A DNA stretch of 64,000 nucleotides from assembly GCA_041891055.1 (NCBI GenBank), contig CP169074.1, forward strand, positions 1,760,001 to 1,824,000, in the 5' to 3' direction. This document shows positions 4,350 to 17,727 of the stretch, piece after piece. A program made the translations under genes and the position numbers. The first letter of the stretch is position 1. Each line of letters starts with the position of its first letter. The stretch comes from Halorutilales archaeon Cl-col2-1 (GTDB taxonomy: Archaea; Halobacteriota; Halobacteria; Halobacteriales; Afararchaeaceae). The notes beneath the pieces were generated by a model. The model had not been told where the DNA came from. It was given only the letters and a program-made list of their open reading frames with translations, and ran no database searches.

Positions 4350-5159
4350 ATGCTGACTTCACGAGTGATTCCGTGTCTCGACGTCACAATAGAGGACGGA
4401 GAGCCGAATGTCGTCAAGGGCGAGCAGTTCGAGGAGCTGAGGTACGCGGGCGATCCCGTCGAGTTAGCGAAGAAATACAACCGACAGGGAGCCGACGAGC
4501 TAGTCTTCTTAGACATAACAGCGAGCTCCGAGGGACGTGACACTATGCTCGATGTCGTGAGAAGGACTGCGGACGAGGTCTTCATACCCCTCACGGTCGG
4601 CGGAGGCATCTCGTCGGTCGAGGACATAAAGGAGACACTCAGGGCGGGAGCCGACAAGACGAGCATGAACACGGGCGCGATAAAGAACCCCGACGTCGTC
4701 GACGAGGGTGCCGAGAAGTTCGGGTCACAGTGTATAGTCGTCGCGATAGACGCACGACGCAACACGAGCGACGAGGGTGAGTACTACTTCGAGGTCGACG
4801 GGGACGAGGTCTGGTTCGAAGCAGTAATATACGGCGGAAGTGAGCCCACCGGAATCGACGCCGTCTCTTGGGCACAGGAGGTTGAGGAACGAGGAGCGGG
4901 GGAGATACTCCTCACGAGCATGTACGGCGATGGAACCAAGGACGGCTATGACATACCTCTAACGAGAGCGGTGAGCCAGAACGTTTCTATACCTGTCATA
5001 GCGAGCGGCGGAGCCGGAGAACCCAAACACATGGTCGAGGCGTTTACCGACGGGAGCGCGGACGCCGCCCTCGCCGCCTCTATATTCCATTTCGACGAGT
5101 ACACGGTCGAAGAGGTGAAGGAGTACCTCGACGACTCGGGTATAAACGTCCGTCTGTAA
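4350..5159 (+). CDS. hisF: Imidazole glycerol phosphate synthase cyclase subunit
   Basis: [48 protein letters not shown]. Confidence 0.97.
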
Positions 5160-5185
5160 TCGACAGGAAAGATATGTTCTTATGA

Positions 5186-5326
5186 CTACGCTCCTCTGCT
5201 AGCTTCGGTGTCCATGCCTCTACTCCTCTCACACTCGGGACAGGCGTAGACCTCGTCCTGGTTGTTTCCGAACACCCTGGAGTAGCTATCGCTGACGTAA
5301 GACCCGCATGTCTTGCACTCTGCCAT
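5186..5326 (-). CDS. Small CPxCG-related zinc-finger protein (46 aa, absent from ORF track)
   Basis: Manual translation MAECKTCGSYVSDSYSRVFGNNQDEVYACPECERSRGMDTEASRGA; two CxxC knuckles; TATA-like box upstream. Confidence 0.8.
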   Translation of the reverse strand: MAECKTCGSYVSDSYSRVFGNNQDEVYACPECERSRGMDTEASRGA

Positions 5327-5388
5327 AGAAGATCCTTGTTCGAGATTTATCGCGTCGTTTTAAAAAGACTGTGGTTCTTAGCCACGGA

Positions 5389-5952
5389 TCAGTCTCTCCT
5401 GCGTACCTCATCTATCACGGATCGTATCTCGTCACGGAACTCTTCGAGACTAGACGTGTTCTCGACAGTGACCTCGGCGTTCTCGATAGCCTCGTCCATA
5501 CCGTAGCCTATCTCCCTCTCGTCTCTCTGTCTGAGATCGTCTGCTTCGGTGACGTCGTCCGAACGTCCCCTCTCACGTATACGTCCGAGACGCGTCTCGA
5601 AGGGTGCCTCGATAGCTACGAGGATGAAGTCATCTCCGAACTCGTCACGGAACCTCTCGGCTTCCGCCCATCCTCTCAAGCCGTCGACTAAGACGACTTG
5701 GATGTCACCGTCTTCGAGCTCTGACTCTATGAGGTCGACACATCTCTCGGCGACAGCGTCTTCTCCTTCTTCCTCCCTGAGACTCGTTGCGACCTGACCG
5801 AGACTCTCGTCGGTCTCGTCTGCGTCCCTCTTCTCGGCTTCTCGGCGTATGACATCTCCCATCGTCACGACGGGAATACCCATCTCTTCGGCTACCTCCG
5901 CTGCCTCACTCTTGCCGCTTCCCGGCATACCCACCGTACCTATGACACGCAT
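5389..5952 (-). CDS. P-loop nucleotide kinase (UPF0200 / dephospho-CoA-kinase-like)
   Basis: Start re-called at MRVIGTVGMPGSGKS (Walker A); DGLR, RGRSDD, RDERE motifs. Confidence 0.8.
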   Translation of the reverse strand: MRVIGTVGMPGSGKSEAAEVAEEMGIPVVTMGDVIRREAEKRDADETDESLGQVATSLREEEGEDAVAERCVDLIESELEDGDIQVVLVDGLRGWAEAERFRDEFGDDFILVAIEAPFETRLGRIRERGRSDDVTEADDLRQRDEREIGYGMDEAIENAEVTVENTSSLEEFRDEIRSVIDEVRRRD

Positions 5953-6347
5953 ACTCGCGTCTATTCGCGCACCCCGTATCTGAGTACCGGTTCGCTCTGG
6001 CACAATCCGAAATCTTTTTACATAAGTGCTACTAAGAATGTAGTAGCACCGGTTGATTACCCCCCTTCCCCCACCATACATCAAACCGGTGTCACCCCTT
6101 ACCCCCCACCCCACCAGTACAGTACTCGTTTTCTATTTCCCCCTTATACGTAGTACAGGAGAATACCTGACTCCTTCAGGGTCAGGATGAATCCGTTCTC
6201 GAAGTTACCACTTCGAGGGCTGTTGAGCTTCGCTCAACAACGTTAAACTACTCACCAAATCATTCTAATAGACACAAACGGATATTCAACGAAGCTCATA
6301 TTCAAGTAAGATTTAATAATATACATATACAATAACTACGTGTAGTC

Positions 6348-7646
6348 ATGGAGACCAACCTAACGATAACAGCCGAGATACTAAATCACTCTCAAGTAGA
6401 GAGTGATTTAGACAGGCATGGTTGGTCTGCCTCGAAACTATGGAATATTGCCAGATACTACACTAGAGAAGTCTGGGAAAAGACAGGAGAGATCCCTGAG
6501 GAAGATACGTTGAAGACCGAGTTGAAAGAACACGAAAGATACGAGGACTTACACAGTCAGTCCAGTCAGAAAGTTCTAGAAGAGCTTTCTGAGGCGTACC
6601 AGTCTTGGTACGGCTCCGACGACGACAGGGATAATCCTCCTGGCTACCGCAAACGTTGGTACTACGACGGCTCAGGTAATCTAGTCCACGAAGAACATCC
6701 TAGGAGTACGGTCACATGGAAGAATCGTGGCATAAGACACGATTCTGACAATAACAGAGTACGTCTCTCTAAAGGCAAGAATCACAAACAAGTAGAAGAA
6801 CGTAGCGACTTCATCCTCATAGAGTACGACTTACACAGACCATACAACGAGATAGACGGAAGTATACAGCAGGTTCGTGCTGTATACGACGAAAAGGAAG
6901 AAAAGTGGGAGTTACACCTAGTCGTACAGAAAGAGATAGAAGTAGAAGACTCAGGAGAAGAGACTGTAGGGATCGATCTAGGTATCAGTAACTTCGCTGC
7001 GCTCTCGTTCGAGAACGGCGATACCGTTCTTTACCCCGGCAACGAACTCAGCCAGAACAACTACTACTTCGAGAAAGAGAAGGCTAAACTCGATAAGTCG
7101 GACGGTAGAGAACGTACTCGTCTAGATCATCTACAGTCAGAGAGACGTAGACACTTCCTCCATTCGTTGTCTAAGCATATCGTAGAGGAGTGTAAGAAGA
7201 GAGACGTTGGAAAGATCGCCGTAGGCGATCTTGAGGACATTCGTCAGGACGACGATGGAGAAGCCAGAAACTGGAGAGACTCAGGTAATTTAAACCTGCA
7301 CAAGTGGGCGTTCGACCGCTTTACCGGGATGCTAGAGTACAAGGCGAGGCTGAGTGGTATTGAGCTAGAGAGGATAGACGAAGAGAACACGTCGAAGACG
7401 TGTTGTGTCTGTGGTAAGCTCGATGGTGACCAGAGAGTCGAACGTGGTCTGTACGTCTGTGATGACTGTGATACGGTAGCTAACTCAGACGTTAACGGAG
7501 CTGAAAACATAAGACAGAAGTCTGAAGGTAACTCCGAGTCTTCTTGCTTTGATCAAGAAGATAGGAGTATCGGTTGTTTGGCACAACCTGGAGTCTACCT
7601 GTATGATCGGTCTTGCGGATTCGAACCGCAAGAAGCCGTTGGGTAG
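6348..7646 (+). CDS. tnpB: RNA-guided endonuclease TnpB
   Basis: SKLWN helix, GIDLG (RuvC-I), TSKTCCVCG...CDDC zinc finger, NSDVNGAENI (RuvC-III). Confidence 0.93.
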   Translation: METNLTITAEILNHSQVESDLDRHGWSASKLWNIARYYTREVWEKTGEIPEEDTLKTELKEHERYEDLHSQSSQKVLEELSEAYQSWYGSDDDRDNPPGYRKRWYYDGSGNLVHEEHPRSTVTWKNRGIRHDSDNNRVRLSKGKNHKQVEERSDFILIEYDLHRPYNEIDGSIQQVRAVYDEKEEKWELHLVVQKEIEVEDSGEETVGIDLGISNFAALSFENGDTVLYPGNELSQNNYYFEKEKAKLDKSDGRERTRLDHLQSERRRHFLHSLSKHIVEECKKRDVGKIAVGDLEDIRQDDDGEARNWRDSGNLNLHKWAFDRFTGMLEYKARLSGIELERIDEENTSKTCCVCGKLDGDQRVERGLYVCDDCDTVANSDVNGAENIRQKSEGNSESSCFDQEDRSIGCLAQPGVYLYDRSCGFEPQEAVG

Positions 7647-7801: not shown

Positions 7802-9232
7802 TCAAGATATAAGAGATATGACTCTAACTCCGTCCTTAGATAGTAGACTGCTTATCTTAGAAGATGCTTTTACTACTCTGTCCGCGGACTCTTCAGCGAA
7901 TACGTCAGGATCACATGACTCTATCAGAGATGGTAGTTTTTCGACGCCGGTTACTCTCTGACCTCCCGTGAGGTTCGAGACTCCGTCGTTGAGTATCACA
8001 ACGAGGATGTCCTCATCTCTCTCAGACGCCTCCAAGAGACCCTGTATACCCGAGTGAATGAATGCGGTGTCTCCGACGAAAGCTACGGCATCCTCGGGAT
8101 GTCCGGACGCGAGGCTTATCGCAGATCCGAGCGCCGAAGCACCGTCGGCGAACTCGAACGGAGGACGTCCCGTGAGTGCTACCGAGCCTATGTCGACCGC
8201 GACGAAGACGTCCAGAAGATCATCGACGACACCCTTGTAGATCTCGTAGAAAGGATTCGACTCAGGTAGGGGACGTCCGCTTTTCTCTATATCTGGGCTG
8301 ACGGGTGAGGGGTCGGTGAAAGCAGTCTCGATACCTCTCTCCACGGCTTCCTCGGTCAGTCTTCCGTACCGCGGCAGGTGTCCAGTCTCCTTACCCACCA
8401 CGTTTTGGGTGTCGAGGAAATTTTCTATCAGAGGATCACCGTCTTCCACTACGAGGACTCTGTCGTGTCTCCCGACGAAACGTTCCGCCTCGGACGGTAC
8501 TGGATACGAGTATCCGAGCGAGAGATGTGAGACGTCGTCGGGAACCACCTCCGAGGCGTCGCCACACGACAGTACGCCGAGGTCAGTACCCCCGTCTCTC
8601 AGACTGTGTAGATCCGAACTGTCGACGTACCTCCGTATCTCGGGACGTATCTCTTCCTCGAAGACCTTTCTGCGTCTGACTACGGGACCTTTCCACGCCC
8701 TCTGTCTGTCGAACTCGCCCGTTTCTTCTATTCTGTCGAATCTCAGTCTCTCGACTGCAGTCTCAGATTCGAGAAGACGCGAGGTCACGCGTACTATACA
8801 CGGCACACCTACGTCTTCTGAGAGTCTCAGACCCTCCTCGACTGACTCGAGTAATCCGTCTACTCCTGAGGGAGTCAGAACCGGAACCCGCGCCTTGAAA
8901 CCTAACGAGCGTGAGTCTCCCTCGTCCTGTGACTTGACAGCTCCGGGATCGTCGCCCGCGATGACTAAGACACCGCCGCCCGTCCCGAAGGTGGCTGAGC
9001 TCGCGAGGGGGTCGAGTGCGACGTTGACACCCACGTGTTTGGCTATGAGACAGCCCCTCTCGCCAGCGAACGACCTTCCTATGGCTTTCTCTACCCCCAC
9101 CATCTCGTTTGGAACCACGTCGGAATCGGTCTCCTCGACCAGATCCGTGACAGGATATCCCACGACTCCCGCCGTGTATACGTCGTTTTTCTTGAGACAA
9201 CGCGCGACCGCTTCAGCGCCGCTTATCCTCAT
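7802..9232 (-). CDS. TPP-dependent enzyme related to indolepyruvate:ferredoxin oxidoreductase alpha subunit, lacking Fe-S motifs (candidate 2-oxoacid decarboxylase)
   Basis: SGAEAVAR, GYP, NEMVG, KHVGVNVALD, GDDPG..SQ.EGDSR (IorA-like) and TPP motif GDTAFIHSG...VVILND; no ferredoxin domain. Confidence 0.8.
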   Translation of the reverse strand: MRISGAEAVARCLKKNDVYTAGVVGYPVTDLVEETDSDVVPNEMVGVEKAIGRSFAGERGCLIAKHVGVNVALDPLASSATFGTGGGVLVIAGDDPGAVKSQDEGDSRSLGFKARVPVLTPSGVDGLLESVEEGLRLSEDVGVPCIVRVTSRLLESETAVERLRFDRIEETGEFDRQRAWKGPVVRRRKVFEEEIRPEIRRYVDSSDLHSLRDGGTDLGVLSCGDASEVVPDDVSHLSLGYSYPVPSEAERFVGRHDRVLVVEDGDPLIENFLDTQNVVGKETGHLPRYGRLTEEAVERGIETAFTDPSPVSPDIEKSGRPLPESNPFYEIYKGVVDDLLDVFVAVDIGSVALTGRPPFEFADGASALGSAISLASGHPEDAVAFVGDTAFIHSGIQGLLEASERDEDILVVILNDGVSNLTGGQRVTGVEKLPSLIESCDPDVFAEESADRVVKASSKISSLLSKDGVRVISLIS

Positions 9233-11913: not shown

Positions 11914-13052
11914 CTTCCTCTCACCTCCTCGACCAGCTCGGATATGCTGACTGTGTCTCTTCCCGACTTGAGACTCTCGACTACCTCCTCAATCTCGTCC
12001 TCGATCTCTATACCCTCTCTCTCGGCGATGAACTCTACTGCCTTTCTACCTGAATGTTTCCCGATCTCGAACTCCCTCTCTCGTCCGACTTTCTCGGGAG
12101 GGTATACCTCGTAAGTCCCGGGATCGTTGGCTATCCCCTCGACGTGGACACCGCTCTCGTATCTGAAGGCGTTTTTCCCGACTACCGGCTTCGTAGGGCT
12201 GACCTCTATTCCCGATCTCTCTTCGACGACTTCCGAGAGACGGCTCAGTTTCTCAGTCTCTACCACCTCGAACGAGTACTGTGTCGAGAGGACGACTGCG
12301 ACCTCTTCTAGGGGAGTGTTGCCCGCGTTCTCACCTATGCCGTTCACAGTCGTGTGTAGCTGTACTGCGCCCTCCTCGGCTGCGGCAACTGTGTTCGCGA
12401 CTGAAAGACCCAGGTCGTCGTGGCAGTGTACCGAGACGGGTACCTCGACCCAGTCTCTGACCTTAGTCACCATCGTTCGTGTCGTCGGTGGGGTTAGAGC
12501 ACCCACAGTGTCGGCTATACCTACCATGTCGGCTCCTCTCTCCTCGGCACCCGTGTAGAGACGTCTGAGGAAGCCGGGGTCGGATCGTGTAGAGTCCTCG
12601 ATGGCGAAACGCACCTCTATCCCATGATCAGACGCGTACTCGACCGTCCTGAACGCCTTCTCAGCCGCCTCTTGCCTCGTTATACCGTACTTCTGACTCA
12701 GATGGCGGTCGCTCCCGGCTATGAATACACCTACTGCGTCGGCTCCCGTCTCGATTACGGAGTCTATGTCGTCTTCCATACACCGCGCGAGACACGAGAT
12801 CTTAGCGTCTGTTCCGAGACTCACGACCTCCTCGACGGCTCTTCTCTCGTCGTCGCTTACAGCCGGAAATCCCGCCTCTATGTATCCTACTCCTGCTTCG
12901 TCAAGCAGACGCGCTATCTCCTTCTTGTCCTCGACCGAGAACGAGACTCCGGGTGTCTGTTCTCCGTCTCTTAACGTGACATCGTATATATGAAGATCAT
13001 CAGTTAGTTGGGGTCTGTCGACGAAGTTCGAGAAGCTGTTGGCTTGGGTCAT
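11910..13052 (-). CDS. aksA: Homocitrate synthase-like DRE-TIM acyltransferase (AksA-like), no regulatory domain
   Basis: DVTLRDGEQTPG, HCHDDLG, GIGENAGN, ESGVH, GKHSG; about 380 aa from the ATG at 13052. Confidence 0.8.
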   Translation of the reverse strand: MTQANSFSNFVDRPQLTDDLHIYDVTLRDGEQTPGVSFSVEDKKEIARLLDEAGVGYIEAGFPAVSDDERRAVEEVVSLGTDAKISCLARCMEDDIDSVIETGADAVGVFIAGSDRHLSQKYGITRQEAAEKAFRTVEYASDHGIEVRFAIEDSTRSDPGFLRRLYTGAEERGADMVGIADTVGALTPPTTRTMVTKVRDWVEVPVSVHCHDDLGLSVANTVAAAEEGAVQLHTTVNGIGENAGNTPLEEVAVVLSTQYSFEVVETEKLSRLSEVVEERSGIEVSPTKPVVGKNAFRYESGVHVEGIANDPGTYEVYPPEKVGREREFEIGKHSGRKAVEFIAEREGIEIEDEIEEVVESLKSGRDTVSISELVEEVRGR

Positions 13053-13071: not shown

Positions 13072-13752
13072 TTACTCTCCGAATACCTCTGTCGTGAGGC
13101 TCTTTCTGACGGATTTGGCGGCTTCCTCGGGTGTGACTCTCTCCTCTGAGACACCGATATCAGGTATCTTTCCGACGACGTCAATGCCTGTCATCATCTC
13201 AATTTCGTCGGGGTTTGTCCTCTCGGCTGTGTCGGGATTCTCAGGATATCTGTTGATAACTATTCCCGAGACATCGAGGCTTCTTCTCTCGACTGCCTCG
13301 ACGGTGAGCGCTGTGTGGTTGAGGGTTCCGAGGCTCGGGCGCGTGACAATGAGAACGGGGACTCCGAGGTCTTCTATCAGGTCTATTACCTCCTTACCGT
13401 CGTCGAGAGGCACTCTCACACCTCCGATACCCTCTACGACGGTGAAGCCGTCCTCGGATAACCTCGATACGACGTGTTCGAGTACACTGTCGTAGCCCAG
13501 GTCACACCCCTCTATCTCCGCCGCGACTCTCGGAGCCAAGGGCTCTTCGAGTACCGACGCGCAGACTTCGTCTACGGGGTCGCCTGACGCCGCACTAAGA
13601 AACTCGGCGTCGTCACTCCCGCCTGACTCGACGGGCTTTACTGCGTTCACGTCGAATCCCTTGTCTTTCAGGTATCTTACTATTCCTCCCGCGACTACTG
13701 TCTTACCCACTCCTGTGTCGGTTCCGGCTACGAATATCCCGTTCGTGTTCAT
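13072..13752 (-). CDS. bioD: Dethiobiotin synthase
   Basis: FVAGTDTGVGKT, KPVESG, VEGIGG, LGTLNHT. Confidence 0.95.
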   Translation of the reverse strand: MNTNGIFVAGTDTGVGKTVVAGGIVRYLKDKGFDVNAVKPVESGGSDDAEFLSAASGDPVDEVCASVLEEPLAPRVAAEIEGCDLGYDSVLEHVVSRLSEDGFTVVEGIGGVRVPLDDGKEVIDLIEDLGVPVLIVTRPSLGTLNHTALTVEAVERRSLDVSGIVINRYPENPDTAERTNPDEIEMMTGIDVVGKIPDIGVSEERVTPEEAAKSVRKSLTTEVFGE

Positions 13753-14960
13753 ATCACTCCCACCTCTTTGCCTGCCTCCTCGAACGCGTCCACGACTTTT
13801 CGGATTTCGTCATCTGTATGGGTCGCCATCGCGCTCACACGTATCCTACTCGTACCTTCGGGGACTGTCGGAGGACGTACTGCGGGAGCGAAGATGCCTC
13901 TCTCCTCGAGCTTATCCCCTAGACTTACTGCGTCTTCGGCGTCGCCTACGAGAACCGGGATTATCTGTGACTCACGGCTGAGTATCTCATATCCGAGGTC
14001 GCTCAGACTCTCTCTCAAGAACTCGACGTTCGACCATAGATCTTCTCTCAGATTCTCTCCCTCACCACTCCTTACGAGATTTACTGCCTCGCGTGAGACC
14101 TCGGCGTCTATCGGGCTCAGACCCGTGCTGAAGACGAACGACCTCGCCTCGTTCACGAGGAGGTCGATAAGCTCTGAGGATCCAGCGACAAAGCCGCCCT
14201 GGCTTCCGAGGGCTTTGCTCATCGTACCCATCTGAATATCTATGTCGTCCACAAGCCCCTCGCGTCTGACTACTCCAGAACCTTCCTCGCCTACTACACC
14301 TGTGGCATGCGCCTCGTCGACCATTACGAAGCCACCGTCGTCGCGCGCTATCTCCGATATTTCCTTGAGGGGAGCTATGTCGCCGTCCATCGAGAATACC
14401 GAGTCGGTCACAATCAGCTTACGTCTTCCGTCGTGTTTCTTCCATTTTTCACGGAGGTCGTCGGGATCGCAATGGTCGTACACAACGGTTTTGGCGTCTG
14501 AGAGGCGGCATCCGTCTATTATGCTCGCGTGGTTGAGTTCGTCGCTGAATATAACGTCCCTCTCGTCTGCAGATCCCTGATCTCCAGGCTCGGAAATCAA
14601 AGATTTCCGAACGTCGGTGACTGCGGTGATCGTTCCGACGTTCGCGGCATATCCCGACGAAAAAACCAGAGCGTCTTGTGTTCTCTTGTACTCGGCAATC
14701 TCGTCCTCGAGACGCCGGTGTGGCTCCAGATTGCCCGATAGTAGACGCGACGCTCCTGCCCCAGTGCCGTACTTATCGCTCGCTCTGCACGCCGCCTCCT
14801 TCAGACGTCTATGGCTTCCGAGCCCGAGGTACGAGTTGGAGGAGAGAACCAAGGTTCTGTCATCCTCGCCGTCGACCGTCGCTGTCTTTCCAAAGCCGCC
14901 GAGTTCCCTCATCGACCTGTAGAGTCCCCGGCGTTTCCTGACCTCAACCTCCTCGAACAT
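13749..14960 (-). CDS. bioF: 8-amino-7-oxononanoate synthase
   Basis: SSNSYLGL, GASRLLSG, DELNHASIIDG, FSMDGD, DEAHA, GTMSKALG (PLP lysine). Confidence 0.95.
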   Translation of the reverse strand: MFEEVEVRKRRGLYRSMRELGGFGKTATVDGEDDRTLVLSSNSYLGLGSHRRLKEAACRASDKYGTGAGASRLLSGNLEPHRRLEDEIAEYKRTQDALVFSSGYAANVGTITAVTDVRKSLISEPGDQGSADERDVIFSDELNHASIIDGCRLSDAKTVVYDHCDPDDLREKWKKHDGRRKLIVTDSVFSMDGDIAPLKEISEIARDDGGFVMVDEAHATGVVGEEGSGVVRREGLVDDIDIQMGTMSKALGSQGGFVAGSSELIDLLVNEARSFVFSTGLSPIDAEVSREAVNLVRSGEGENLREDLWSNVEFLRESLSDLGYEILSRESQIIPVLVGDAEDAVSLGDKLEERGIFAPAVRPPTVPEGTSRIRVSAMATHTDDEIRKVVDAFEEAGKEVGVI

Positions 14961-14963
14961 CTA

Positions 14964-15962
14964 CTAGAATCCGGGCATTATCTCGCTCGGATCGAAGAGG
15001 CCGTAGAGTCCGTTTTGGTTGAGGAAGACCCCTTTCTTGAGGTATCCGAGCGCGGGACCGTTGACGTTCGCTGCCATGCTCGTGTTGTCGTCTAGCTTGA
15101 ATGTGTTGGTGCCCTCGTCGCCCTCGAAGGTCGTACCCGTCACACGTACGGTCGTCGTCGTGGGTTTCTCGTCCTGTGTGACGTCGAGTATTCCTCCTAC
15201 CTTGACGTCGGCGGAGTCACATATTCCCGCCTTTTCGAGGAGTACCTCGTCGGCGTGTTCCATGTCCTCGAACTCAAGACGTCCGTCGTGTTCCTCTATT
15301 ATCTCCTCTATCTCGTCGTCGGACATCTCGGAGACCTTTTCGAGGTCGTACTCCGGGAGATGTGCGATGTCCTCTCTCACGGTTCCCTTGTTCTCCTCGT
15401 ATCCGCTCGCTATGCCTACTCCCCACCATATCTCTATCTCGTCGACCTCTACGAAGCTCTGTGAAGCGATTGCGGCGGCTCCCGTGAGGAAGCCGGGCGT
15501 CGCACCTGCGCCACAGATGAAGGTAATTCCCGATGCCTCTATCTTCGACTCCATATCTTCGAGCATGCCGATCACACGCGACCTCTTGAGGACGTCAATC
15601 ATGACTCCCGAGTAGCCCGCGTCTGCGAATCTGTCGACGGTATCGGGTATGAACGAATGGGGGATGTTGGGAAGAGCCATCAGGACGGCGTCTATACGGT
15701 CGCTGACCTCGATGACCTCCTGTATCGAGTCGTTCGCGGGAGTCCCACCGGGAGCCTTCGCGACTGTTCCTCCGTCGGCTTCGACCGCATCGACGATGTC
15801 GTCGACTTCGAGACCGTCGAAGTCTATTGCCACACCTTCTTTGTCACACACCGCGACCGGATTGAGGTCGTCCTTGTACTCCGAGACTTCGAGTGTTCGT
15901 TTGCCTATTCCACCTGTACCAAGTACGGCTATGTTCTTTGTATCTGCGTCTGTTTCAGACAT
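14964..15962 (-). CDS. bioU: BioU NAD(P)H-dependent suicide enzyme (replaces BioA)
   Basis: Rossmann VLGTGGIG, ALPNIP, DVLKRS (conserved Lys), GATPGFLT, REDIAHL, MEHAD, TSMAANVNGP; lies between bioW and bioF with no bioA present. Confidence 0.85.
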   Translation of the reverse strand: MSETDADTKNIAVLGTGGIGKRTLEVSEYKDDLNPVAVCDKEGVAIDFDGLEVDDIVDAVEADGGTVAKAPGGTPANDSIQEVIEVSDRIDAVLMALPNIPHSFIPDTVDRFADAGYSGVMIDVLKRSRVIGMLEDMESKIEASGITFICGAGATPGFLTGAAAIASQSFVEVDEIEIWWGVGIASGYEENKGTVREDIAHLPEYDLEKVSEMSDDEIEEIIEEHDGRLEFEDMEHADEVLLEKAGICDSADVKVGGILDVTQDEKPTTTTVRVTGTTFEGDEGTNTFKLDDNTSMAANVNGPALGYLKKGVFLNQNGLYGLFDPSEIMPGF

Positions 15963-16725
15963 ATTTATCGAGTTCTTTGGGTTTTATACTGTAGAAATCC
16001 GACACTCCGTCAACCAGAAACGGCGTAGTCTCAAGACTGTCTATATAGCTGTTCAGATCCGTGTCGGGAGAGACGAAGTAGACGCGTCCTCCCGAAGAGC
16101 CGTCAGGCTTCATCCTCGGAAAACGGAAGTAAGTCGCGTCCACAGCTACGTATCCGGGCTTATAGCCGGGGTTGTCCGACCAGCAGATTTCCCCGACTGT
16201 TCCCTCGACCCACTGTGTCTTCGTAGACAGAACGACTGCGTCCTTGACACGTGTTCCGCCGAGACCCGCGTCGTGTATACACTCTTCGAGTCCCTCCTCG
16301 CCTTCATCTGTCGTGCCGACGTAAGAGGTTCTCACTCCTCGACTCTCGTCGGGTTCGAGCCTCTCGCCAGTCTCGGAGTCGACGACTGCAGCACCTCTCA
16401 TCGCCGTCTCGGAGCGGAGTATCTCGAACCCTCTTTCGGTAGCCTCCTTAGAGATGTGTTCCTGAAGTATACTCCTCGCTGTCGCGTGACTCTCTTTGAG
16501 GCTCGATGTCTCGACCGTGACGACATCGACTGTGTCGCTTCTCTCGGGCTTTTGTTCGATCTCTTCTATTGAGATCTCTACGGAGTCGGGCGTCTCTCTC
16601 GGGTGGTTCATCGCTCTCGCCGTCATAGACGAGACTGTGTCGTCTATCTCGTCGTCGACGACTATGTCCTCCGCGCCCGAGACGTGTTCGTCGTTCAGAG
16701 AAGCCCTCATCCGTACGCTGTACAT
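15955..16725 (-). CDS. bioW: 6-carboxyhexanoate--CoA ligase (pimeloyl-CoA synthetase)
   Basis: MYSVRMRAS..HVSGAE, RAMNHPR, MRGA, RLEPDESRGVR, EICWSDNPGYKPGYVA, GGRVYF. Confidence 0.92.
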   Translation of the reverse strand: MYSVRMRASLNDEHVSGAEDIVVDDEIDDTVSSMTARAMNHPRETPDSVEISIEEIEQKPERSDTVDVVTVETSSLKESHATARSILQEHISKEATERGFEILRSETAMRGAAVVDSETGERLEPDESRGVRTSYVGTTDEGEEGLEECIHDAGLGGTRVKDAVVLSTKTQWVEGTVGEICWSDNPGYKPGYVAVDATYFRFPRMKPDGSSGGRVYFVSPDTDLNSYIDSLETTPFLVDGVSDFYSIKPKELDKYV

Positions 16726-16728
16726 ACT

Positions 16729-17727
16729 CTATTCGAGGTCTTCGACGCGTCTTCCCGCGTTCTGGATCATCTCTATGTCTTCCTGAGCGTTCTGTCCCTC
16801 AGTCGTGAGGTAGTCGCCTATTAGGAGACCGTTGGCTCCCGATTCGAGTATCTCGGGCTGTCTGTCCTTGAGGTTCTCCTCGCGCCCTCCGGTGATCCGT
16901 ATCACCTTCTCGGGCATCATGAACCGGTAGATGGAGACCGACCGGAGTATCTCGTCGACGGTGATCTTCGAGTACGACTCGAACGGCGTTCCGGGTACGG
17001 GATTGAGTATGTTGACAGGTATCGAGTCGACATCGAGCCTCCTAAGCTCGGAAGCCGCCTCTATCCTGTGCTCCATCTCCTCACCCATTCCGAATATCAC
17101 TCCGACACACGTCTTGAGACCGACCTCCTGTGCGATCTGAATAGTCCTGACCCTGTCGTCGTAGTCGTGTGTGGATATGACCTCGTCGAAGTACGACGGC
17201 GCGGTCTCTATGTTGTGGTTGTAATGCTGAAGACCCGCCTCTGCGAGATCCTCCGCCTCCTCGCGCGTGAGAACTCCGAGGGAGCCGTCGGGTTCTACGT
17301 CTGTCTCGTCCCTGATGAGACGTATCGACTCTAAGACCTTCTCGAACTCGTCGGGGCGTTTCTGCTTGTCGATTCCGCGCTCGGCGACCACGATACCAAA
17401 CCTGTTCGAGCCGTCTTCCTCTGCCCTCTTCGCGGCTTCGAGTATCTCCTCGGGGTCGAGGTAGTCGTACTCGTCGACGCCCGTGTCGTAATGGTTCGAC
17501 TGGGCACAGAAGCCACAGTCCTCGGCACATCCGCCGCTCTTGGCGTTGATGATAGAGCACGTATCGACGCCGTCGCCCATATTCGACTCACGTATCTCGT
17601 CGGCGGCGTCAACGAGGGGTTCGAGGGGAGCGTCGGCGAGACGGAGAGCCTCTTCCTCCGAGACTCCCTCACCCCTCAGAGCCTTCGTCTTCAGATGACC
17701 TATCTCCTCAGCTAACTCGTTAACCAT
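16729..17727 (-). CDS. bioB: Biotin synthase
   Basis: CSIINAKSGGCAEDCGFCAQS radical-SAM motif, YNHNIET, GDYLTT. Confidence 0.97.
   Translation of the reverse strand: MVNELAEEIGHLKTKALRGEGVSEEEALRLADAPLEPLVDAADEIRESNMGDGVDTCSIINAKSGGCAEDCGFCAQSNHYDTGVDEYDYLDPEEILEAAKRAEEDGSNRFGIVVAERGIDKQKRPDEFEKVLESIRLIRDETDVEPDGSLGVLTREEAEDLAEAGLQHYNHNIETAPSYFDEVISTHDYDDRVRTIQIAQEVGLKTCVGVIFGMGEEMEHRIEAASELRRLDVDSIPVNILNPVPGTPFESYSKITVDEILRSVSIYRFMMPEKVIRITGGREENLKDRQPEILESGANGLLIGDYLTTEGQNAQEDIEMIQNAGRRVEDLE

Follow-up and report, generated by a model that had tools for sequence, protein, structure and literature searches.

A cluster-free IorA-like thiamine diphosphate protein as a candidate 2-oxosuberate decarboxylase in the biotin operon of Halorutilales archaeon Cl-col2-1

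What could a relative of IorA, the alpha subunit of indolepyruvate:ferredoxin oxidoreductase, contribute to biotin synthesis once it has lost the ligands of its iron-sulfur (Fe-S) cluster? The question is raised by an open reading frame (ORF) of 476 codons that occupies exactly positions 7802 to 9232 on the minus strand of a 64,000-nucleotide stretch of Halorutilales archaeon Cl-col2-1 (contig CP169074.1, positions 1,760,001 to 1,824,000), which is referred to below as the window and to which all unprefixed coordinates relate. Its product, P0001 (476 amino acids [aa]), is encoded last in an operon of ten genes on one strand, in the order bioB-bioW-bioU-bioF-bioD-aksA-hacA-hacB-aksF-P0001 gene, with overlaps or gaps of 0 to 20 nucleotides (nt) at the junctions. 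On the evidence of its sequence features, the operon, the absence of IorB, purifying selection, and the aks linkage of its relatives, it is rather probable that this thiamine diphosphate (TPP) protein acts as a non-oxidative 2-oxosuberate decarboxylase yielding pimelate semialdehyde, with an unlinked aldehyde dehydrogenase and then BioW, the pimelate-CoA ligase, operating downstream.

The family assignment of P0001 combines a distant overall likeness with well-preserved cofactor motifs. Pfam recognizes TPP_enzyme_C (PF02775; 35.9 bits, over the cut-off) as the sole domain, and the top NCBIfam model is TIGR03336 (IOR_alpha), at 202.9 bits versus a cut-off of 650.9. Because this match spans model positions 51 to 472 of 595, the C-terminal part of the model is absent from P0001. 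The domain order (pyrimidine-binding, domain II, and diphosphate-binding) is that of IorA, a member of the 2-oxoacid:ferredoxin oxidoreductase (OFOR) superfamily, at 27 to 33% identity. Among the TPP motifs, E43, GYPVT, DSR108, G387-D388, H393-S-G, and TGGQ are retained, the E43 site reading NEM in P0001 and NEK in relatives. The diphosphate- and Mg-binding motif of the PP domain (G387-D388-x4-H393-S-G ... N415-D416 ... T422-G-G-Q425; positions 7958 to 8074, minus strand) lies in invariant or nearly invariant alignment columns. A preliminary description of the locus had stated that the pyrimidine-binding motifs of IorA and the GD..N signature were kept; the former are indeed present, and the latter is only approximate, since the conserved Asn of the family corresponds to Asp416, with N415 beside it. 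Of 59 columns conserved across relatives with and without the partner subunit IorB, 49 are kept, the TPP-binding ones included.

The structure prediction that the same description had called for gave a confident fold, with a mean predicted local distance difference test (pLDDT) value of 90.1 and a predicted template modeling score of 0.89 for an AlphaFold2 model built on a 56-row alignment. The sole stretch with a pLDDT below 50, residues 316 to 318, lies just before the lost C..C site. With P0001 alone as the query, a phmmer search of the PDB returned nothing significant, the top matches being chance hits to biotin carboxylases. A family-profile search of the PDB matched the N-terminal half to OFOR alpha subunits and the C-terminal half to OFOR beta subunits (1yd7, 5b48, 6n2n, and 5c4i).

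OFOR enzymes decarboxylate a 2-oxoacid on TPP, withdraw two electrons via their clusters, and transfer the acyl group to coenzyme A (CoA), which is bound by the gamma or IorB domain. The features that would serve the last two tasks are missing from P0001. In an alignment of 23 sequences (P0001 and 22 relatives), Cys fills at least 90% of the rows in four columns, namely, those of C..CP (P0001 positions 323 and 326) and D.GC (position 350) and one C-terminal Cys. Where relatives have ..C..CP, the first two ligands of the proximal [4Fe-4S] cluster, P0001 reads RPLPESNPF (residues 320 to 328; positions 8249 to 8275, minus strand), and in place of D.GC, the third ligand, it reads DIGS (residues 347 to 350; positions 8183 to 8194, minus strand). 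The replacements noticed at the outset are thereby borne out, with P323, N326, and S350 in the three ligand columns, and the C terminus (..VISLIS) ends before the fourth column. The ligands are not retained elsewhere in the protein either: its five Cys residues (12, 61, 145, 223, and 440) are spread over the chain without any CxxC and occupy columns that are non-Cys in the relatives.

P0001 contains no ferredoxin motif of the form C..C..C...C. The absence of a C-terminal ferredoxin domain, as described earlier, is therefore real; it has no diagnostic value, given that the domain is also missing from many IorB-linked IorA proteins (about 520 to 560 aa, mostly from Bacteroidota). No iorB gene adjoins the P0001 gene, in agreement with the first description, and the IorB/POR-gamma domain PF01558 has no match anywhere in the genome (2.06 Mb in 4 contigs, 99.47% complete), although the same search gave a match in 11 of 14 control genomes, Haloferax volcanii among them. 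As the whole genome gave no match to this domain, the pyruvate and 2-oxoglutarate:ferredoxin oxidoreductases that salt-loving archaea usually have seem to be missing from this organism.

The genomic context of P0001 points to a substrate. The pathway requires free pimelate (C7) for BioW and pimeloyl-CoA for BioF. The sole preceding chemistry that the operon encodes is 2-oxoacid elongation from 2-oxoglutarate, and a C7 compound with an aldehyde or acid end arises when the C8 acid, 2-oxosuberate, is decarboxylated, which makes 2-oxosuberate the likely substrate. The ATG of the P0001 gene overlaps the stop codon of aksF (ATGA), and the gene is, as judged from this overlap, translationally coupled to aksF. 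Other LeuA/LeuCD/LeuB-type genes of the genome lie outside the operon and are only 31 to 44% identical to the operon genes; distant and located elsewhere, they mark the aks genes of the operon as a dedicated extra set. In a sample of 41 genomes from 18 families of the order, mostly of 2 to 4 Mb, P0001 occurs in two, this genome and its sole congener (96% identity), and in none of the 39 others, and BioW has exactly the same distribution. The proposal of the preliminary description that the protein acts on 2-oxosuberate is thus strengthened by its coupling to a dedicated elongation set within a biotin operon and by the co-occurrence with BioW in both members of the genus.

The following route would accommodate these observations. 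AksA, HacA, HacB, and AksF would extend 2-oxoglutarate to 2-oxosuberate (C8) in three acetyl-CoA-dependent rounds, and P0001 would remove C1 of the product as CO2 on TPP. As there is no cluster, ferredoxin domain, or IorB to accept the electrons or the acyl group, protonation of the hydroxyalkyl-TPP intermediate and its release as an aldehyde, 7-oxoheptanoate (pimelate semialdehyde), is the simplest fate that can be proposed. An unlinked aldehyde dehydrogenase, for which the one full-length enzyme of the genome is the obvious candidate, would then oxidize 7-oxoheptanoate to pimelate, BioW would convert pimelate into pimeloyl-CoA, and BioF, BioU, BioD, and BioB would complete biotin. That P0001 acts on 2-oxosuberate, that it releases an aldehyde, and that an aldehyde dehydrogenase takes over from there are inferences.

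The P0001 gene is under purifying selection. In a comparison with the sister species, the ratio of non-synonymous to synonymous substitution rates (dN/dS) is 0.206 for the P0001 gene, a value derived from small counts (38.7 synonymous and 25.3 non-synonymous differences), and 0.245, 0.103, and 0.483 for hacA, hacB, and aksF, respectively; the P0001 gene lies within the span of the two hac genes. The genome contains no second copy of the gene. When 1.84 billion representative sequences were scanned exhaustively with HMMER, one 99% twin of P0001 was retrieved, all other matches having at most 41% identity, and a tblastn search of a plasmid collection gave seven records, all of them ordinary IorA.

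The preliminary description had also suggested that homologues might be informative for the synthesis of coenzyme B, and the closest relatives of P0001, which lack IorB and come from archaea bearing Mcr, speak strongly for this idea through their gene neighborhoods. The loci were taken from two scans, one of genome contigs and one of metagenome contigs, and the best 80 of each (160 in total) were divided into the 23 most similar to P0001 and the other 137. The 23 loci, seven of them metagenome contigs, encode proteins with 32 to 38% identity to P0001 and stem from Methanoperedens, anaerobic methanotrophic archaea of the ANME-2 group, Methanosarcinales, a metagenome-assembled genome (MAG) of 'Methanomicrobia', and MAGs labelled Bathyarchaeia, Nanoarchaeia, and Bipolaricaulota. 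Their proteins measure 480 to 527 aa, apart from one longer ORF that is cut at its 5' end; all are free of a ferredoxin motif, and all but the cut ORF retain C..CP and D.GC. No IorB is encoded in any of these 23 loci, 18 of which extend for 1.7 kb or more downstream of the gene. Among the other 137 loci, in contrast, IorB follows directly downstream in 121 and is found elsewhere in the locus in four; nine have less than 500 nt of room, and three have room but no IorB.

Two kinds of neighbors recur beside the IorB-less genes. Six of the 23 loci have the gene next to homologues of aksA and hacA, in part also of hacB and aksF, that are 42 to 55% identical to those of the window; no bio genes lie within 10 kb of these aks-linked relatives. 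In 13 loci, it directly follows the gene of methanogenesis marker 11 (TIGR03280), and in the remaining four neither is found alongside. Three further genomes from a scan of the phylum all have marker 11 directly upstream. This protein has a TiaS-TCKD-like kinase-type domain, and its gene often overlaps the IorB-less gene (loci L006 to L008, L011, L013, L019 to L021, L086, L087, L089 to L091, and L168 to L170). Marker 12 is encoded downstream in L019, L020, and L170, and the marker 11 and marker 12 proteins are candidates for later steps of coenzyme B synthesis. A DUF7714 protein with a weak, below-cut-off match to the 'XcbA family' is encoded behind aksF in four aks clusters with an IorB-less gene (L010:10616-11455, L012:16035-16871, L014:16266-17120, and L088:15308-16180).

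A profile of the IorB-less group, scanned against 301 genomes of the phylum, yielded 82 with scores of at least 525 bits, all in six families, and 78 of the 86 genomes of these families carry McrA, the eight without it being incomplete or contaminated MAGs. On this profile, which separates the matches cleanly, ordinary IorA reaches at most 340 bits, P0001 372, its congener 368, and a protein of genome G258 359. The frames around five high-scoring IorB-less matches are reported to contain one in-frame stop each, four TGA and one TAA (G290:C9:18573-20054, G294:C18:58099-59607, G127:C1:2183567-2185099, G061:C6:22085-23671, and G213:C1:557689-559233). A shorter relative (389 to 455 aa) is present in all five genomes taken, one each, from five Mcr-bearing families without the high-scoring form. 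These genomes are Methanomicrobiales-like, and in all five (L171 to L175) marker 11 comes first, followed after some 320 codons by the short form, aksA, and hacA. The intervening stretch of L171 encodes a radical S-adenosylmethionine (SAM) protein (L171:2763-3731, minus strand) weakly resembling LipS2/lipoyl synthase, i.e., sulfur-inserting enzymes, a likeness that is suggestive in view of the coenzyme B thiol.

Genome G258 (1.5 Mb, no McrA match) has a 496-aa IorB-less IorA-like gene that retains the four Cys (L167:3088-4578, minus strand). It directly follows an iron alcohol dehydrogenase gene (L167:4616-5857, minus strand), and a class I/II aminotransferase gene is nearby (L167:1458-2621, plus strand). 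Together these genes look like a set leading from an amino acid via a 2-oxoacid and an aldehyde to an alcohol. The alcohol dehydrogenase hints, as a single case, that IorB-less proteins may release an aldehyde.

Taken with the aks and marker 11 linkages, the relatives of the methane archaea would probably perform the same step for coenzyme B. The organism of the window is itself no methanogen, this identity being ruled out by the absence of McrA and of any marker 11, marker 12, or DUF7714 homologue from its genome.

Where P0001 belongs with respect to these relatives was addressed with two trees, in both of which it falls outside the starred clade of IorB-linked proteins. A tree forcing P0001 together with the IorB-less group was not rejected (log-likelihood difference of 2.16; approximately unbiased test, p-AU of 0.43), a result that denotes compatibility and not proof. 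Of the residues specific to either group, P0001 shares 13 of 22 with the IorB-less group versus 5 of 36 with the IorB-linked group, and these signatures lean toward the former placement. The composition of P0001 departs from that of the other rows, as expected for an acidic protein of a halophile.

The idea that the loss of the Cys ligands is unique to P0001 had to be rejected: of the 149 best other representatives, all three aligned Cys are missing from 25 and one or two from 9, the 25 having 29 to 40% identity to P0001. Twenty-one of these 25 Cys-less proteins form one starred clade and four another. P0001 and its congener stand apart from the large clade, and a position within it is rejected by a starred branch (98). 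Cys loss has consequently occurred more than once. The Cys-less proteins from elsewhere, in unrelated lineages (within the range P0067 to P0177), have 493 to 554 aa, no ferredoxin motif, and often Ser at D.GC. The few members with a name belong to aerobic Bacillales (Marininema halotolerans, a Mechercharimyces sp., and Paenibacillus polymyxa), where the annotation says no more than TPP-dependent enzyme. None occurs among the best 80 loci of either contig scan. The expectation of a Cys-less clade tied to aks or bioW genes was not upheld, as the relatives linked to aks genes are of the kind that keeps four Cys.

Several observations weigh against 2-oxosuberate decarboxylation by P0001. None of the aks-like genes of the operon reaches an NCBIfam equivalog cut-off, so that the number of rounds, and hence the C8 product, is read from the presence of BioW and from the relatives. 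No aldehyde dehydrogenase is encoded in or near the operon, the one full-length enzyme of the genome (C1:1481675-1483036) lying about 290 kb off. Ten residues conserved throughout the family are changed in P0001, namely, the four Cys, the preceding Arg, K44M, A46G, N103D, N209H, and N416D. In a tree of 67 rows, P0001 sits on a long branch (1.98) between the IorB-linked clade and the IorB-less group, in the second tree, with more relatives, it falls in an unresolved fork, and its group-profile score between those of ordinary IorA and of the members marks it as no clean member of the aks-linked group. Finally, the aks-linked relatives all retain the four Cys; the cluster may therefore matter there, and P0001 may have changed its function on losing it.

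Four other explanations were weighed. If P0001 were an active TPP enzyme with another substrate or chemistry, e.g., for a shorter 2-oxo-dicarboxylate or an acyloin-type carboligation, its place in the operon would be incidental or would serve a second product of the aks genes. The long branch and unsettled position, the sub-threshold aks scores, and the existence of Cys-less IorA-like proteins without assigned roles in aerobic Bacillales would all suit this explanation, but the gene is coupled to aksF in an operon where nothing else would provide BioW with pimelate, the aks linkage recurs in relatives, and established biotin chemistry leaves BioW and BioF no use for C6 or C5 products. We therefore regard it as rather unlikely. 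Oxidative handling of 2-oxosuberate, with the electrons passing to another partner or to O2 and with pimelate or a pimeloyl thioester released directly, would need no aldehyde dehydrogenase, in keeping with the gene content of the operon, and would accord with the descent of P0001 from an oxidoreductase lineage. Against it stand the missing Fe-S ligands, ferredoxin domain, flavin domain, and CoA-binding IorB/POR-gamma domain, and direct formation of pimeloyl-CoA would render superfluous the BioW that the operon retains. An oxidative reaction is thus quite unlikely.

The changed residues and the insertion sequence (IS) element inserted right behind the gene could also indicate that P0001 is a degenerate Fe-S enzyme, no longer catalytic, that arrived with a transferred aks cluster, with pimelate made otherwise or taken up. 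Such decay is very unlikely, given a reading frame that is intact in two species and constrained (dN/dS of 0.206), the 49 of 59 universal positions kept with the cofactor-binding ones among them, a confidently predicted fold, and a start codon overlapping the aksF stop. That P0001 might simply be a normal indolepyruvate:ferredoxin oxidoreductase alpha subunit served by a distant IorB is suggested by its top family match, IOR_alpha. A score of 203 versus 651 bits, the absence of four ligands, and a 99.47%-complete genome devoid of PF01558 leave this explanation a negligible probability, and the sequence evidence thus argues for the original assertion that P0001 cannot work as a normal ferredoxin oxidoreductase.

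The biotin genes proper precede the elongation genes on the minus strand. The first, bioB (biotin synthase; 16729 to 17727), exceeds the cut-off of TIGR00433 with 383 bits, and an A+T-rich, TATA-like stretch about 25 nt upstream of its ATG may be read as the promoter. It is followed by bioW (pimelate [6-carboxyhexanoate]-CoA ligase; 15955 to 16725; PF03744 at 237 bits and NF002360 at 241 bits, over cut-off). In BioA's place, the operon encodes a BioU-like protein (14964 to 15962), whose 342 bits against NF047886, below the cut-off of 600, make it a distant member of BioU; no bioA over the cut-off was found in the genome. The genes bioF (8-amino-7-oxononanoate synthase; 13749 to 14960; TIGR00858 at 438 bits) and bioD (dethiobiotin synthase; 13072 to 13752; TIGR00347 at 139 bits) are both over their cut-offs.

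The elongation genes, also on the minus strand, begin with the AksA-like homocitrate/isopropylmalate-type synthase P0005 (11910 to 13052), which matches subfamily models only below cut-off and whose likely start is the ATG at 13052, as the listed TTG at 13184 would overlap bioD. It is 48 to 51% identical to synthases encoded beside IorB-less relatives. The HacA-like large subunit P0004 (10666 to 11913) is over the cut-off of NF001614 (507 bits) and short of that of HacA_Meth (431 versus 550 bits). The HacB-like small subunit P0003 (10184 to 10669, counted from M60) scores 162 versus 230 bits with HacB2_Meth and has the loop KYLRR; its ORF is listed from 10846, and family alignments start near residue 60. 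The AksF-like homoisocitrate/isopropylmalate-type dehydrogenase P0002 (9229 to 10191) matches Iso_dh, and its scores for LEU3_arch (302 bits) and AksF2_Meth (268 bits, cut-off of 540) are both below cut-off; it is 42 to 46% identical to dehydrogenases beside IorB-less relatives. The small-subunit loop reads YLRR in the hacB product of the operon and YLRT in those beside the relatives, and it differs in the two other LeuD-like proteins of the genome. A YLR. loop is reportedly, from work by Jeyakanthan et al. in 2010, the substrate loop of the homoaconitase type. A paper citing Jeyakanthan et al. describes, in general terms only, the region of this loop as setting specificity.

Directly behind the P0001 stop codon, a TnpB-type gene (IS200/IS605 OrfB; 6348 to 7646, plus strand) belongs to an element with ends at about 6148 and 7801. 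The sister species has no IS element here: its counterpart of window positions 5001 to 6147 runs directly into the stop codon of the P0001 gene, so the insertion in this genome is recent.

By descent, P0001 is a TPP protein of the IorA/OFOR type. From IorA, whose domain order it shares, P0001 differs by a score far under the cut-off and by the loss of the four proximal-cluster ligands, the ferredoxin domain, and IorB. Its highest identity (32 to 41%) is to the IorB-less group, annotated as IorA or 'TPP-dependent enzyme'; both have neither IorB nor a ferredoxin domain, and both are aks-linked. The members of that group retain the four Cys, many of them are encoded behind marker 11, and their organisms need coenzyme B, whereas P0001 sits in a biotin operon of a genome without marker 11. 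The Cys-less IorA-like proteins from elsewhere miss the same three aligned Cys, with 21 of 25 in a separate clade. In its proposed chemistry, the TPP-dependent, non-oxidative conversion of a 2-oxoacid into an aldehyde, P0001 would be analogous to ComDE, PDC, KdcA, and benzoylformate decarboxylase. ComDE, sulfopyruvate decarboxylase, itself acts in a cofactor pathway. A Foldseek search with the P0001 model gave the PDC/KdcA-type TPP decarboxylase class as the best matches (E values of about 1e-16 to 1e-14), and template modeling scores of only about 0.3 indicate that the domains are packed differently. Pfam TPP_enzyme_N and TPP_enzyme_M have no match in P0001, i.e., there is no sequence kinship to the PDC/KdcA/ComDE class. 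Within the OFOR superfamily, the PFOR of Pyrococcus can reportedly release acetaldehyde.

Labelling work of R. H. White is said to have placed 2-oxosuberate upstream of both 7-oxoheptanoate (for coenzyme B) and pimelate (for biotin) in methanogens. To our knowledge, no gene has been assigned to the decarboxylation of 2-oxosuberate, the methanogen route being known from isotope labelling only. In its section 14.5, a genome review from 2011 names genes for the elongation steps only (PMC3087415). Searches of an open-access paper library, with supplements and subscription journals outside the scope, gave no assigned 2-oxosuberate decarboxylase; the terms 'oxosuberate decarboxylase' and 'ketosuberate' are unused there, and no paper that ties IorA-like proteins to coenzyme B or pimelate came up. 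As for biotin, three routes to its pimelate moiety, BioC-BioH, BioI-BioW, and BioZ, are given as known in PMC9909488. In the route proposed for the window, pimelate would stem from 2-oxoacid elongation and decarboxylation instead of fatty acid synthesis or cleavage, and this route would arrive at the same BioW/BioF entry point as that of Bacillus.

On this background, P0001 may represent a redox enzyme lineage turned into a decarboxylase of a cofactor pathway, in a cluster-free form. A wider reading is put forward tentatively, as one that may well hold but that we would not yet rely on: IorB-less IorA-like proteins would supply the 2-oxosuberate decarboxylase still missing from coenzyme B synthesis in methane- and alkane-metabolizing archaea, P0001 would be a cluster-free, oxygen-compatible descendant or cousin used by a salt-loving aerobe, and the operon would constitute a fourth genetically defined pimelate route for biotin. 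One missing gene would then stand behind two old gaps, i.e., the decarboxylation of 2-oxosuberate for coenzyme B and the source of archaeal pimelate for biotin. The window offers the cleanest genetic statement of this connection, as a single operon unites the elongation set and the TPP enzyme with BioW and the ring-forming genes. Cluster-free and from an inhabitant of oxic brines, P0001 should also lend itself far better to expression and assay than its methanogen counterparts. If the wider reading is true, the cluster was lost and the function kept, which would mean that the methanogen enzymes do not require their cluster for catalysis. Confirmation would name a gene of coenzyme B synthesis and thereby a possible target for methane mitigation, and it would establish a further pimelate route and, for metabolic engineering, provide a natural enzyme that decarboxylates a C8 2-oxo-dicarboxylate to yield C7 building blocks.

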